From Acidobacteriota bacterium (GTDB lineage Bacteria > Acidobacteriota > JAAYUB01), in NCBI GenBank assembly GCA_016935015.1, contig JAFGRT010000122.1:76310-140309 (forward strand): DNA of 64,000 nt. Direction: 5' to 3'. Both the position numbers and the translations under genes were made by a program. Below are positions 43,893 to 49,329 of the stretch, piece by piece (within the stretch, counting starts at the first letter, position 1; the number at the start of each line of letters is the position of its first letter). Below the pieces are notes generated by a model, which had not been told where the DNA came from, did no database searches, and worked only from the letters and a program-made list of their open reading frames with translations.

Positions 43893-45938
43893 CTATTCCA
43901 ATCGGTAGGCCGTCAGGAGGTGGTCCTCGTACGCCGGTGTCAGTTCCAGGATCGTCTCGACGTAATGACTGTTGCCGTAAAAGGGAACGATGATCCAGCG
44001 GAAACCGGCCTGGCGGAGCATTCGACGCATCGTTTCGGCGTCCGGGGCCGACGGCGATTCATAGGGATAGAGCACACAAAACAATCCCTCGCTGGCCGGC
44101 GGATCGGCAAAATACGGCCGGATCCCGACGGTGGTGCTATGCTGCGGACGACCCGCCGGCCCAGGATCGGCCAGTGGCCGGAGAAGCACCGTGTCGCCGG
44201 CGCCGCGCCGGATCGAGGTCGACAGCCGGAACCGCTGCTCTGCCGCATCCGCCACTTCCAGCTCCGTCACCAGCCCCCCCCTGGCCCGGCGGCGCTCGCC
44301 CAGCCAGATGTCATGGGGCCGGCTGGTTTCGATGCACAGACGTCCGGGGCCCTGCAGGTAGCCAAGGGCGACGAAAGTGGATTCTTCCGCCATGGCGGGA
44401 GCGGCGGCCAGGATGTCTGCCGGCCGGCCGGTGCCGTAATGATAATAATCGTTTTCGGCGATGATCTCGCGGATAGGGCTGACCTCGTACTGCTCTAGCG
44501 CAGACTGCGGCACTCGGTTGACCATGCCGTCCCGGCCCATGACTTTCCGGTGGTGAACGGTCTGGAAATACAGGGCGTCGGCGAAATAATGCAGATCCAT
44601 GACACCTTCATCCGGGCTGGAGTTGTGCTGTAGCTGGGTGTAAAACGGGCTGACCGGCAGAGGGTTCATGACGAACGGTACGCCCAGACTTTCGCCCACC
44701 AGTAGTCCACAGACCAGGGTGGCGAAGCCCGCCATCAATTTATCCGATCGCAGCCGGCCGCTGAGGTGATGGACACCGGCGGCCAAAAAAAGGCACCCGG
44801 CGAACCAGGTCATGATATGGAAGCGGATGGGTGAGCGGATGATGCCGGCGCCGGGGATCCCGTCGGCCAGCAGGCCATATGGCAGGGTCACCGACTCATA
44901 GAGCTCACCGCCCGTCCGCAGGTGATACCCCAGGGAAAGGACGAAGAACATTACCAGCCACCCGGTGAAAACACATCGGATCTCCCGCCGGCAGGTGAAC
45001 CAGCCCACGCCGGCCAGCAGCCAGGCCGTCCAGGGGATGAAGTTCTCGGGCGTAACGTTGTTGGCCCGCCAGTGGCCGCCGCCCGAGGCCACCAGCCGGC
45101 CGAAAAGGGACCGCTCGCCGGGGATGACGAACGACGCAAGGTCGGCGTTATCCCGCCGGGCGATGGTCTCAGCCGGCAGGCCCTGACCGGCTTCCCACAC
45201 CATACCGCTGATCAGCGGGCTGAGCACCAGGACGCTGATGAGGATGATGACGGCCGTTCCCCGCGCCCGCAGCAGCAAGAAGCGGATGTCGCACCGTGCC
45301 CGGTACAGAATCAGGAGGAGTGATGCCATCACGCAAAACACAAAATAGTACCAGCTGGTCAGGGCGATGAGGACCAGCCAGCCGGCGGCGGCCAAGGCCT
45401 TCCGGATCCGCCATCCCGCCTCATCCGCCGCCAGCAGGGACTGGACAAAGAACGGGATCCACTGGTAGTGCATCAGGTTGAGGTGCCCGGCTTCGAGCTT
45501 GGCAAAATGATAGGGGCAGAAGGAATAGGCGGTTCCGGCCACCAGGGCGCCCCAGAAACCGAATCCCAGGTAGCGGCCCAGCCGGAACATTCCCAGGCCG
45601 GCCAGGACGAAACTCAGCAGGGCGGACAGGTTGTACACCGTCACCAGCGACAGGAAAGGCTGCAGCGGAATCGAGGCCAGAGTGACCGGTAGATTCCAGG
45701 TATGCAGATAATTGCACAGTCCGGCGGGGAAATACACGAAGTTATGGCAGAACGGATGGATCAGGCTCACTAGGCTGTATTTCAGCCACCACATGTTCCA
45801 GGTGAAGAGAGAGGCGTCCCCGGCGCCGATGAGACGGTCGGACAAATGGACGACGGCGGGATAGGTGGACAGGACGGCCAGAACCAGATAGCCCGTTGTG
45901 GCGACGGTTAGCTCCCGCTTCTCGGTGGCCCGTTTCAT
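43893..45938 (-). CDS. Large polytopic membrane protein, GT-C-fold glycosyltransferase-like (ArnT/PMT/YfhO-like); hypothetical
   Basis: 681 aa, more than 10 predicted TM helices, and a C-terminal soluble domain. Its start abuts the repeat-rich region. Confidence 0.5.
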   Translation of the reverse strand: MKRATEKRELTVATTGYLVLAVLSTYPAVVHLSDRLIGAGDASLFTWNMWWLKYSLVSLIHPFCHNFVYFPAGLCNYLHTWNLPVTLASIPLQPFLSLVTVYNLSALLSFVLAGLGMFRLGRYLGFGFWGALVAGTAYSFCPYHFAKLEAGHLNLMHYQWIPFFVQSLLAADEAGWRIRKALAAAGWLVLIALTSWYYFVFCVMASLLLILYRARCDIRFLLLRARGTAVIILISVLVLSPLISGMVWEAGQGLPAETIARRDNADLASFVIPGERSLFGRLVASGGGHWRANNVTPENFIPWTAWLLAGVGWFTCRREIRCVFTGWLVMFFVLSLGYHLRTGGELYESVTLPYGLLADGIPGAGIIRSPIRFHIMTWFAGCLFLAAGVHHLSGRLRSDKLMAGFATLVCGLLVGESLGVPFVMNPLPVSPFYTQLQHNSSPDEGVMDLHYFADALYFQTVHHRKVMGRDGMVNRVPQSALEQYEVSPIREIIAENDYYHYGTGRPADILAAAPAMAEESTFVALGYLQGPGRLCIETSRPHDIWLGERRRARGGLVTELEVADAAEQRFRLSTSIRRGAGDTVLLRPLADPGPAGRPQHSTTVGIRPYFADPPASEGLFCVLYPYESPSAPDAETMRRMLRQAGFRWIIVPFYGNSHYVETILELTPAYEDHLLTAYRLE

Positions 45939-47712
45939 CCCCTGCCCCCTTCGCTAACGTCAAATGGATGCGTATTTTCGACGACAGAACCTGATCGTCA
46001 GCCAACGTAGCACAACCGAGCCCAAAACACCAGCGGCAGGTTGGAGGAAATGACCCGTTCCAAATTTGGTGTTGGATTTCCATGATACCATCGTTGTCGC
46101 TAACGTCGTCGTCATGGTGATCGACAAAATCGCTGTCGTGGTCGTGATTGTAATCGATTCTTCGAAGTGGCCCGATCCTCACGGACAGTCTTCGGAATAA
46201 TTAAGATTCCGAAATATCCATTGTCCTGATCGTCTACGCAGAAGGATGTAAGGAAGAGTGTGTTCTCTGTGATTACCCTTCATATTCTATTGAACGGAAG
46301 ACGTTTATCGAGTGCGGCGCGGGGAGAGCCTGCGGCGCCGCCACCGGCTACTGGCCCGCAACCCTTACCCGGGGTGGGAGGCAAAGAGCATGGAAAAGTT
46401 CTCTCTTCATCCATCATCCATGGCTTGCCGAAAGAGCATTGTCGATCGTCAGTAATTTATCGAAAAGATCGATTACGATAACAAATACGACAACGAAAGC
46501 GATCAGGAAAGGAGTAGCCAAACGCGATCATGGACAAGAATTTTTCACTTATATTTCAACATGTTTGCCAGGTCCGACCCCGAAACAACTGGCACGATGG
46601 TAGTTCAAGCTTCCAGCTTGAGTGTGGTTGCAAGCAGGATGCTTGCGCTACACCCTAATTTTTGGAGGGCCTTTCAGGCCTCGGGTTCTATCGGAGGGAT
46701 CGTATTTTCGTGGGCTCACGTTGTTCGCCCACGGCTACCATCGGGTTGGCCCTTCGGGCCTCCAGAAGGGGGGAGTCCCGGGGAAAGTGAATACGGGCAG
46801 GCGGCGGGTCGAGAGGTTCGACTACGATTACGACAACGACAGCGAGCCTGACAAGGGCGGCCAGGGGCGATCAGGGCCAAGAGTCATTTCGCTGTCGTTG
46901 TCGTGATCGTCAGCGTGATCGATTCATAGCGGGATATGATCCTCACGTAATTTGTTCGAAATAAATATTTTCCGTTATCCTCCATAGCGGTGGATGGCTC
47001 TGCTGATTCTGCCGGGTCCGTAAAGAAAATTGTCCTGCCGCCCCTGCCCGGGGCGGCAATTTCCTTACGACGTCCTTTCCGGTGGCCGTGCCTCCGGCGC
47101 CGCCACCGGCTACTGGCCCCCCACCCCTGCCCGGGGTGGAAATCAAAGAGCATGGAAAAAACATCATTCCATGCATCATCAAGTCTGTGCTGAAAGATCG
47201 TTGTCGATCATAAGCCTTTCGTCGAGGGGGATCGACTACAATTACGACGACGACAACGACAGCGATTAAGACAACAGCAGCGCGGAGGTCTCAATCAGGG
47301 GCGAGAGTTTTTCGTTGTCACCATTTATTACCGTGAATTATATCCCTGATGGTCTTTGGGTTCGTTACCGATCCCGATAGTGTTGGCACTTTTCTCGACT
47401 ACTCTATCGACTACCATTACGACAACAATAACAACAGCGATCGGGACAGAGGCGGCCAGGACTACACTGTTGGAATCGATGGGGCAAACGAGTCGATTAC
47501 GACGACGACAACAAGAGTTTGCAGATGCAGGCTGTGCGGGAGAGGATGCGAGATCTCCGGTTCCCCTTCTTTTGCTGGCCGGCAGATTGTCTCGGTCGGC
47601 CGCCCGGGCCGGATCAATCCGGGATTGGATTTGACTCGGAGCGAGAAATATGTAACATTGATCGCGAGGCGTCATCTTAAACGCGCAGAGCGATACACCA
47701 AGGGGTTGAACC
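45939..47712. repeat. Repeat-rich ~1.8-kb region. It holds at least 7 degenerate copies, on both strands, of a 30-40-bp (NAC)n motif (atcgaYtacNaYtacgacaacgacagcga). It also holds two paralogous ~180-bp units, each with a GC-rich palindromic box and a tiny MEK... ORF.
   Basis: Motif copies at 46094-46158 (-), 46468-46506, 46817-46846, 46888-46923 (-), 47231-47267, 47406-47441 and 47492-47518. Paralogous units at ~46330-46510 and ~47090-47270. Confidence 0.7.
47030..47269 (+). other. Candidate small ORF ending in IDYNYDDDNDSD (the most intact member of the DY-motif family); coding status unproven
   Basis: Track ORF 47030..47269. An internal ATG would give the 32-aa peptide MHHQVCAERSLSIISLSSRGIDYNYDDDNDSD. 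The paralogous unit at 46330-46510 is frameshifted. Confidence 0.2.
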
Positions 47713-48237
47713 ATGCGGAGGATAGCGATTGCCGGCTCACTGATCCTGCTGCTCCTGGCCGCACCGGCCGCGGCGGCGCCGGCCAAGAAGGTGGTCAAGG
47801 GCGACAAGAAGGAGTTGCGGGGGGTCACCCGCATCTACGTCCAGGCCAATGACAAGGAGTATCGCCGCATCATCGAGACGTACATCATGGAGGAGCTGCG
47901 GGGGATGTCCATCGTTTCCCTCATGTCCGAGGCCGATGCGGTGCTGACGTTCACCTACGAGAATCCGGAACGGAAGAAATCCACCCAGTTCAAGTACAAG
48001 GGGCACAATCCGCGGAAAATGCGGGTGGAGGAGTACGATTACGACAATTTCATCATGCAGGGCCGGGGGGAGATCTTCAAGGTCACGGGGTATGCCCCGG
48101 ACTCCCAGAAAGTGACGCTGCGCCTGCTGGCGGAATGGGAGAGCGGCAAGATCAACCTGGCCGAGGTGACGGACCTGCAGATCGCGCCCCTCGACTTCGC
48201 CAGGGAATTTGTCAAGCTGTGGCGCAAATACAACTAG
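47713..48237 (+). CDS. Hypothetical secreted protein (signal peptide) containing an EEYDYDN motif
   Basis: ATG with an AAGGGG ribosome-binding site. Signal peptide MRRIAIAGSLILLLLAAPAAAAPA. 174 aa. Confidence 0.6.
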   Translation: MRRIAIAGSLILLLLAAPAAAAPAKKVVKGDKKELRGVTRIYVQANDKEYRRIIETYIMEELRGMSIVSLMSEADAVLTFTYENPERKKSTQFKYKGHNPRKMRVEEYDYDNFIMQGRGEIFKVTGYAPDSQKVTLRLLAEWESGKINLAEVTDLQIAPLDFAREFVKLWRKYN

Positions 48238-48252
48238 CGGCGGCGCTGGCCG

Positions 48253-49329
48253 TCATTTCTCCCGATAATTCGGATCGTTGCGGTTGACGATCTGCAACCG
48301 CCGCCACGACGGATCGTCGTCGATGGGCAGCGGCCCTTCCACATCCGTCAGGAAATAATTCCCCTGCCCGTCCGTATAGGCTTTCTCATACATGGGCAGC
48401 CAGGTCTGTCGTCCCGTCTGGGGATCCAGGGCCTCCATCTGCCCGGTGAGGACCTTGTGCACTTCCGTCTGGATATCGCTGCGCGTCTGGCTGCGTTGCC
48501 GCTCCATCTGGCGATCGGCCTCGTTGAGTTGCCGGATGATCTCGTTGTACTGCTGGCCGCGCTGGGCCGAGGCCGCCGCGGCGCGCACCACCCACTGCGG
48601 GTCCAGCCGGAAGGTGCGCAGGCAGAGGTCCATGACCCGGGCGTCCTGGCGCCAGCGCCGGGTGGGGGCCACCCAGCCGAAAGTGCCGACGGTGGACCAG
48701 ATGTTCCCCCCCAGGTTGTACAGGATGGCGTAGATGCGACCGACGCGGGGTGTGCCCGCGATGGTGCACTCGAAATTCACGTAACCGCACTGGGAATGGG
48801 TGGCCACTGCAGGCACAAAGGGCCGCAACTCGGGCGATTCCACCGCCGGGCCGATGATGCGCGGATTCTGGAACTCCTGGGCGGACAGGGCGCCGAAAAT
48901 GACGGTTTGCACGTACTGGGGGATGGTCATGTAGGGGTACTGCCAGCAGCCGTTGAGGACACTGCCATACTGCACCCCCAGCCCCATGCCGGCGCCGGGA
49001 TGGGAGCGCGGATCCTGGAAGTAGAATCGGGGGTACCAGCCAAAAAAGGACTGCCCGTCGGGGCTGGTAACCCGAAAGCGGATGTTGGACTCCACCAGGT
49101 CCACCACGTTCCCGGGCACGCCGCTGCCCACCATGCCGCCTTCGGCCCGCCAGCCACGGGGAATCAGCAGGGTGAAAGCGCCCTGGTACGCCTCGCGGTG
49201 CAGGGTGAGATACGTACCCGGCCCATCCCGCCCAGCCTGGGCCAGGGAAAATCCGCCCATCATGGCCAGCGACATGAGGGCGGCGGCCGCCCGTCGTCGG
49301 ACTGACTGATTCCAGCAACGTTTAGTCAT
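48253..49329 (-). CDS. Hypothetical secreted protein (possible Tat-type signal, RRRAAAAL)
   Basis: Trimmed to the ATG at 49329, preceded by AAGGGAGAG. The n-region carries RRR, followed by a hydrophobic core and AQA. Confidence 0.5.
   Translation of the reverse strand: MTKRCWNQSVRRRAAAALMSLAMMGGFSLAQAGRDGPGTYLTLHREAYQGAFTLLIPRGWRAEGGMVGSGVPGNVVDLVESNIRFRVTSPDGQSFFGWYPRFYFQDPRSHPGAGMGLGVQYGSVLNGCWQYPYMTIPQYVQTVIFGALSAQEFQNPRIIGPAVESPELRPFVPAVATHSQCGYVNFECTIAGTPRVGRIYAILYNLGGNIWSTVGTFGWVAPTRRWRQDARVMDLCLRTFRLDPQWVVRAAAASAQRGQQYNEIIRQLNEADRQMERQRSQTRSDIQTEVHKVLTGQMEALDPQTGRQTWLPMYEKAYTDGQGNYFLTDVEGPLPIDDDPSWRRLQIVNRNDPNYREK

Follow-up and report, generated by a model that had tools for sequence, protein, structure and literature searches.

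A gene-free gap in an Acidobacteria genome carries hairpin-forming repeat modules, among them a (CGA-NNN)n motif kept in at least eight bacterial phyla

We analysed a 64-kb stretch of contig JAFGRT010000122.1 from an Acidobacteria metagenome-assembled genome (MAG), which we refer to as the window, and in it a gap of 1.77 kb (positions 45940-47712) without a credible gene. With about even confidence we read this gap as a mosaic of structured non-coding repeat modules, resembling repetitive extragenic palindromes (REPs) and bacterial interspersed mosaic elements (BIMEs), and not as a gene cassette. Three module types would be joined in it and partly duplicated in tandem: a lineage-restricted GC-rich box with three hairpins (the GC box, hairpins H1-H2-H3), a run of CGA-NNN hexamers (the DY motif) and a module similar to the RNA motif Acido-Lenti-1. 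A preliminary description of the same DNA had seen a duplicated small gene or leader cassette with one decaying copy; the duplication and the decay stand, the gene or leader cassette finds no support.

The DY motif, (CGA-NNN)n, has the consensus TCGAYTACGATTACGACNACGAC(AACGAC)AGCGAG. It had been noticed 3' of each of two repeated units, A and B, where it is indeed present, but the gap contains eight copies and not two, five on the plus strand and three on the minus strand, all within 46088-47517, and a profile search of the window found no others. The copies are:

46088-46127, minus strand: M1, a degenerate copy (nhmmer E = 0.002)
46128-46160, minus strand: M2, ATCGATTACAATCACGACCACGACAGCGAT (E = 7e-9)
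46466-46505, plus strand: P1 (E = 4e-6)
46815-46847, plus strand: P2, which pairs with M3
46886-46925, minus strand: M3, which pairs with P2
47229-47269, plus strand: P3, found by the profile search
47404-47443, plus strand: P4 (E = 1e-6)
47490-47517, plus strand: P5, a truncated copy (E = 4e-5)

The inverted pair P2/M3 (46815-46925) forms a 22-bp hairpin, 95% complementary with a 43-nt loop, which folds at -63.3 kcal/mol (z = -5.9 on the plus strand and -5.9 on the minus strand). The modules follow one another in the order box A, P1, two hairpins, the Acido-Lenti-1-like module, the P2/M3 hairpin, box B, P3, P4 and P5.

The GC box is confined to this gap within the window and is not a common repeat; beyond the window, a scan of one metagenome with a 20-mer of the box yielded two truly homologous further loci only, L128 and L136, contigs of 533 kb and 425 kb from one other organism (Ga0209164). 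The hairpins of the box are:

47037-47057, plus strand: H1, GCCGCCCC-TGCC-CGGGGCGGC, terminator-like by a simple scan
47079-47109, plus strand: H2, CCGGTGGC...GCCACCGG, overlapping the start of a 21-nt box
47121-47139, plus strand: H3, CCACCCC/GGGGTGG

H3 lies exactly where the preliminary description had placed it and H1 one base off the 47038-47057 given there. RNA folding, proposed there as a check, gave three hairpins for unit B (47028-47150; -62.2 kcal/mol, z = -4.5), whilst unit A (46328-46392), in which the hairpin had been called imperfect, folded no better than shuffles (z = +0.3). H1, H2 and H3 are all conserved among the window, L128 and L136, and the comparison with these homologous units, also proposed as a check, revealed two compensatory base-pair changes between the window and L128/L136 (pairs 10/32 and 98/112: G-C to U-A and A-U to G-C), H1 and H3 having the same sequence in L128 and L136. 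Both of these loci possess the module types of the window, in a rotated order. The box had also been considered as a possible scattered, REP-like element unrelated to the neighbouring small open-reading frames (ORFs): this is not the case for the GC box, but the DY motif attached to it is a scattered repeat in many other genomes, independent of these ORFs.

Units A and B proved to be paralogous, as first described, and share 76% identity without gaps over 136 nt (46328-46463 vs. 47090-47225). The principal parts are:

46328-46463, plus strand: unit A, a degenerate GC box (without H1, H3 weakened) and mini-ORF region (ATG at 46390, TAA at 46453-46455)
47090-47225, plus strand: unit B, with the box GCCGCCACCGGCTACTGGCCC (47099-47119), H3 (47121-47139) and a mini-ORF (47152-47193)
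46174-46203, plus strand: the conserved segment GATCCTCACG...TTCG.AATAA of the first duplicated copy, with its partner at 46938-46967

Against an expectation of zero from shuffles, the window contains exactly two copies of the 21-mer GCCGCCACCGGCTACTGGCCC. Both units fall within a longer segment of about 500 nt that is repeated in tandem (roughly 46124-46620 vs. 46889-47400), the two copies being offset by 762-765 nt (a period of about 763 nt). A contig from an independent Logan short-read assembly of the same organism is 100% identical to window positions 47090-48700 and its first base is exactly 47090, the first base of unit B, which fits an assembly break at a genuine repeat. The decay of unit A is seen in the missing H1, the weakened H3 and the absence of folding beyond that of shuffles. 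The hexamer TGGCAC also recurs at the equivalent position of both duplicated copies, 3' of P1 (46590-46595, plus strand) and 3' of P3 (47384-47389, plus strand); it resembles the -24 element of a sigma-54 promoter, but the -12 element is poor and we rejected that reading.

Outside the window, we scanned one genome for each of 185,579 species with a DY pattern and obtained at least 121 matches in at least 119 stretches. Among the 121 matches listed, 84 lie in long open frames, and those inspected are Asp-rich protein loops, e.g. calcium loops of the FG-GAP type; 37 lie outside such frames, and about 30 of these belong to one family with shared, unforced features, namely G at position 10 (18 of 20), GATTAC in the free codons and, mostly, an inverted partner. 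Carriers among the matches listed include two Desulfohalobiaceae MAGs (many copies on at least 15 contigs, often at contig ends), Chromatiaceae, Thiocapsa, Thiodictyon and another gammaproteobacterium, Candidatus Moanabacter, Opitutales and another member of the Verrucomicrobiota, a Planctomycetota MAG, Victivallis vadensis (Lentisphaerota), Gemmatimonadota, Candidatus Fermentibacteria, other Acidobacteriota and one unclassified bacterium. The motif, about 30 nt long, is nearly unchanged in at least eight bacterial phyla. It was not found in 2.9 million viral contigs or in 72,556 plasmids, is not in Rfam and has no match in the searchable literature; it seems to be a previously undescribed, widely distributed intergenic hairpin motif.

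Inverted pairs are the rule in this family: 27 were found, in both arm orders (motif inward and outward), and they fold into imperfect stems of 17-35 bp, with no strand preference from G-U asymmetry. Of the 38 elements, nearly all lie in short gaps between genes, as a rule 15-60 nt from a stop codon, and their neighbours are unrelated housekeeping genes, e.g. cdsA-dxr, ftsY and cheB. In Desulfohalobiaceae the repeat measures about 115-130 nt and is 91-95% identical between unrelated loci, and one such copy, in the Desulfohalobiaceae contig L055, shares 94% identity with P3 over 36 nt. The Desulfohalobiaceae hairpins are often bracketed, in inverted orientation, by a GC-rich hairpin, GGGCGAGCGCCGCTCGCCC (L043, L100, L054 and L117), giving nested palindromes of about 200 nt, the same kind of combination of GC hairpin and DY motif as in the window. 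The two Desulfohalobiaceae MAGs, 92% identical overall, share an orthologous hairpin (L019 81-160 vs. L020 7158-7235) whose immediate flanks are about 99% identical. The hairpin itself differs by one 6-nt indel in each arm and three substitutions and stays symmetric; individual copies thus evolve fast whilst the family consensus persists. Co-evolution of the arms within one element was considered for Desulfohalobiaceae and not seen.

The surroundings of the motif in other genomes held some further features. In L055 (2929-3559) a 133-aa PF05635 gene (23S rRNA intervening-sequence/four-helix-bundle protein) lies between cdsA and dxr with a DY hairpin on each side; the two hairpins are near-identical and their outer flanks identical, which looks like the insertion of a cassette at a hairpin. 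No second case was found, and we rejected an association of PF05635 with the hairpins. In the Ga0209164 organism, paralogous genes with a formylglycine-generating enzyme (FGE)-sulfatase domain (552 and 573 aa) adjoin DY clusters (L128 2839-6470; L136 1913-3634), followed in L128 by a radical S-adenosylmethionine (SAM)/SPASM gene; this association was found in that organism only, without homologues in the window, and was likewise rejected. Intergenic DNA near DY motifs in several phyla contains dense imperfect repeats of 6-9-mer words (CTATGCT.., CACAGATTT.., GCAAAATGCTAAATGC.., GGAATGATGGAAG.., CACAGAGA.. and (GACAGC)n), at L081 2170-2345, L093 4950-5325, L073 445-560, L029 2500-2570, L022 4660-4690 and L032 2340-2400.

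The third module type lies between the two boxes, next to a pair of small hairpins:

46605-46654, plus strand: two adjacent tight hairpins (z = -3.7)
46655-46775, plus strand: the Acido-Lenti-1-like three-hairpin module (RF01687, 21.5 bits at 46708-46761)

The region carries a divergent Acido-Lenti-1-like module, with two hairpins, a GGCUA-containing linker and covarying stems. Its score against RF01687 (21.5 bits, E = 0.044) is below the gathering score of 37; at gathering thresholds Rfam gave no match in the whole window, and at relaxed thresholds the gap region gave chance miRNA-like hairpin matches and this weak match only. Related modules elsewhere score higher: one in Victivallis (L073) reaches 33.1 bits about 80 nt from a DY motif, and one in the Thiodictyon locus (L022) reaches 43.3 bits, above the gathering score, about 4.5 kb from a DY pair. 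An alignment of the modules of the window, L136, L128, L073 and L022 shows three hairpins, and 8 of their 17 pairs carry compensatory changes. A custom model built from it scores the window copy, which was in the training set, at 101.9 bits, and found three further copies, two in L136 and one in L122 (Acidobacteriota), the latter 75 nt from a DY motif (30 bits, E = 7e-7). Distances between the module and DY motifs are 35-100 nt in the window, L128, L136, L073 and L122, and this repeated adjacency is the first context for Acido-Lenti-1, an orphan RNA motif known since 2010. According to Weinberg et al. (2010, PMC2864571), Acido-Lenti-1 is an RNA of Acidobacteria and Lentisphaerae that probably acts in trans and in some cases lies close to group II introns; their alignment contains 200-nt tandem arrays in Lentisphaera araneosa. 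The first of the two tight hairpins, GTAGTTCAAGCTTCCAGCTTG (46609-46632), nearly matches a flank of Acido-Lenti-1 in Lentisphaera araneosa (PMC2864571 supplementary file 61), whilst the DY motif and the GC box were not found in the flanks of the 2010 alignment.

In the repeat mosaic that we favour, a family of repeats would multiply within genomes and pass from phylum to phylum, with the DY motif as its recognition sequence and its spread depending on a hairpin- or sequence-specific factor. Unequal recombination and slippage in steps of 6 nt would enlarge arrays such as that of the window, and the long imperfect hairpins, when transcribed, would serve as 3'-end, processing or stability structures of RNA. 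Several points weigh against this. No transposase or other partner gene was found among the scanned neighbours, nor were target-site duplications or empty sites seen, and for this reason we only infer mobility. Nucleotide conservation across phyla is unusual for REP families and REPINs (REP doublets forming hairpins), which are normally species-specific, and the DY copies of the window are clustered and not scattered. The arm types of Desulfohalobiaceae are distinct, and an arm pairs less well with its own partner than arm A does with the arm-A complement of other copies, a conserved imperfection that hints at a specific function. Finally, the covarying stems of the Acido-Lenti-1-like module are a sign of a functional RNA rather than of junk.

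This last point bears on a second explanation, that the units are a tandem array of structured small RNA genes in which the GC box and the Acido-Lenti-1-like module are RNA domains and the DY hairpins are 3' or processing stems. The compensatory changes in H1 and H3, besides those in 8 of 17 pairs of the module, agree with it, as do the significant folding of the box, the DY pair and the two tight hairpins (z = -4.5, -5.9 and -3.7), the classification of Acido-Lenti-1 as a likely trans-acting small RNA with tandem arrays (PMC2864571) and the short distance of the module from DY motifs at five loci. However, the folding energy has no strand preference, no convincing promoters or U-tract terminators flank the units, unit A is decayed, and the unit order and DY orientation vary among the window, L128, L136 and L122. 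Moreover, most loci searched in Desulfohalobiaceae, Chromatiaceae, Verrucomicrobiota and Planctomycetota consist of a DY hairpin alone, inside operons (L022 is an exception). We regard an RNA gene array as possible but on balance doubtful.

The DY motifs might instead be double-stranded DNA binding sites for a regulator, partition or nucleoid protein, which would make the gap a control region of its flanking genes. Eight sequence-specific, conserved copies in both orientations, in one long gap between genes whose starts face it, are what such sites could look like. Elsewhere, however, the motif is found mostly at gene 3' ends or between co-directional, unrelated housekeeping genes, with only 2 of the 22 gaps for which both neighbours were determined lying between divergent gene starts. 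The 6-nt period is out of step with the pitch of the DNA helix, and no conserved regulator gene was seen among the scanned neighbours, so that protein-binding sites of this kind appear improbable.

A last possibility is that the units code for a small protein or a leader peptide (M-x3-S-F-H-x-S-S ... I-V-V-D ... D-Y-D-N-D-S-D), which might be the acidic precursor of a ribosomally synthesized and post-translationally modified peptide (RiPP), with pseudogene copies in the window. The mini-ORFs from which this idea arose are present, MEKFSLHPSSMACRKSIVDRQ at 46390-46455 in unit A and MEKTSFHASSSLC at 47152-47193 in unit B, each ending in a stop, and the frames run as first described, to IDYNYDDDNDSD and a stop in B and to RKDRLR and a stop in A. 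In unit A the MEK and DY frames coincide, parted by the single TAA at 46453-46455; NAY codons give only Asp, Asn, His and Tyr; and in L136, where the ATG is displaced by one codon and opens MRDAHSFHESSQRLTIVVDEG...DDYDN...DYDNDNDSE, one ORF spans MRDAHSFHESS, IVVD and two DY motifs in frame. Indels between the copies are in frame here and, together with the shared S-F-H-x-S-S and I-V-V-D blocks, give a weak hint of coding, to which the radical SAM/SPASM and FGE-sulfatase-domain genes beside the DY clusters of L128 may be added. Yet the MEK ORF is broken in both window copies (TAA in A, TGA and a frameshift in B), is absent from L128, where the similarity stops at H3, and in L136 has no stop but continues antisense through the neighbouring gene. 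A hand count from the alignment of unit B with L136 gave differences of 3:6:7 over codon positions 1:2:3, which is no third-position excess. Gene prediction hardly ever reports such ORFs: in a set of 5.8 billion proteins, the 79-aa unit-B ORF had one match and a translated Desulfohalobiaceae DY element three. No NCBIfam family matches, and the window contains no maturase homologue.

The DY motif itself shows no consistent reading frame. Of the eight window copies, three have no start codon in the Asp/Tyr frame between the upstream stop and the motif, and only one has a stop shortly 3' of it; in other genomes, at least five copies without a start are preceded by a stop at a distance of 0-4 codons. 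Only 16 of the 27 pairs have both arms in frame, and adjacent motifs in L136 differ in frame through 1-nt indels. The third-position T and C of the motif, including the nominally synonymous T of GAT, are conserved in both GC-rich and GC-poor taxa. The constraint on the DY motif acts on the nucleic acid and not on a peptide, which we reject because of the missing starts and adjacent stops, and a small gene in the units is very unlikely. A leader peptide or attenuator, as suggested in the preliminary description, is contradicted by the lack of conservation of the ORF, and the next gene (47713) is 440 nt away behind a promoter-like site of its own, which makes a leader function for that gene unlikely. 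For annotation it follows that acidic 'DYDYDND' or Val-rich mini-ORFs in such regions should not be called.

Other candidates were dismissed more briefly. Since NAY on one strand is RTN (Val/Ile) on the other with the third base free, we considered an antisense Val/Ile peptide, as in a type I toxin or an ilv-type leader, but the third positions of GTA/ATC are fixed across phyla and starts and stops are not conserved; a type I toxin-antitoxin system falls with this Val/Ile-rich frame, whose GTA third positions are conserved. By inspection, an Arg-rich CGA frame gives short ORFs in two copies only. NAY codons are those decoded by queuosine, and a queuosine-codon leader was rejected for want of an ORF or any link to queuosine genes. 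The variable region of a diversity-generating retroelement does not fit the second-position A, which is invariant by inspection. A RiPP precursor was discarded for lack of an intact conserved ORF and of window homologues of the L128 radical SAM or FGE-like genes. For a replication origin in the gap, DnaA boxes and a skew switch are missing.

The gap has a GC content of 0.52-0.56, compared with about 0.63-0.65 in its surroundings, and a tRNA/tmRNA scan found none. Its two neighbours both start facing it:

43893-45938, minus strand: DUF6311-like membrane protein of 681 aa (JXQ27_11895), the left flank
47713-48237, plus strand: secreted-looking protein of 174 aa, the right flank

The closest homologues of the DUF6311 neighbour (L002-L006, 42-45% identity) are on plasmid-like contigs with RepA, relaxase/MobC, toxin-antitoxin pairs and insertion sequences; the contexts of these homologues lack the DY motif, and synteny by way of this gene was abandoned.

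None of the readings explains why eight or more phyla retain a non-coding 30-mer at the nucleotide level; palindromic repeats between genes are as a rule confined to one species. A motif of 30 nt kept from Acidobacteria to Desulfobacterota, Chromatiales and the Planctomycetes-Verrucomicrobia-Chlamydiae (PVC) phyla implies a shared trans-acting partner or frequent movement between phyla, and either alternative would offer a new handle on how repeats spread and affect transcripts. More speculatively, and we consider this rather unlikely, the (CGA-NNN)n motif and a dedicated candidate protein may together make up an undescribed cross-phylum system, in which the motif is an RNA or single-stranded DNA hairpin that the protein reads and that is physically coupled to modules of the Acido-Lenti-1 type. 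Candidates for such a reader are domesticated transposases, recombinases and ring-shaped RNA-binding proteins recognizing CGA triplets at 6-nt spacing. If so, Acido-Lenti-1 would for the first time be placed in a genomic context and perhaps be given a function.

Compared with known systems, the DY elements fit some poorly. They are not integron attC sites, as by inspection their hairpins end in ATCGA/TCGAT and not in RYYYAAC ... GTTRRRY boxes, and their neighbours are housekeeping operons and not a cassette array with an integrase. They resemble miniature inverted-repeat transposable elements (MITEs) in that a pair consists of two inverted arms of about 35 nt round a short or roughly 300-nt core, with near-identical copies at unrelated loci; however, both arm orders occur and hence there is no fixed outer end, aligned Desulfohalobiaceae copies show no target-site duplication, no parent insertion sequence was found, and the window duplication reaches beyond the DY arms, so that we rejected this identity too. 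Rickettsia palindromic elements are palindromic repeats with one reading frame open on both strands. The DY motif is similar in that its NAY/RTN triplets are never stop codons and its indels come in 3- or 6-nt steps, but no clear insertion inside a gene was seen and, as noted, only part of the pairs have their arms in frame.

With Acido-Lenti-1 (RF01687) the region shares several features: both occur in Acidobacteria and Lentisphaerae, are intergenic and form tandem arrays, the divergent copy at 46655-46775 lies within the gap, and scoring copies lie beside a DY motif in L073 and in the same locus in L022, although the DY motif and the GC box are outside the Rfam model. Our favoured mosaic resembles the REPs, BIMEs and REPINs of Enterobacteria and Pseudomonas, which are extragenic motifs of 30-40 nt, mostly in inverted doublets that form imperfect hairpins, in families specific to a species or genus. 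The DY family differs in its nucleotide conservation across at least eight phyla, in arms that are built of CGA-NNN hexamers and are not themselves palindromic, in the lack of a GTAG-type 5' tetranucleotide and of any gene for a REP-associated tyrosine transposase (RAYT, a Y1 HUH transposase) among the scanned neighbours of DY elements, and in the concentration of all eight window copies in one gap. It shares with them the form of a short extragenic repeat in both orientations, the 27 inverted doublets with hairpins, the position between co-directional or convergent genes, the occasional assembly into mosaics with other short modules and probably, in some genomes, the many near-identical copies, at least 15 Desulfohalobiaceae contigs carrying the motif.

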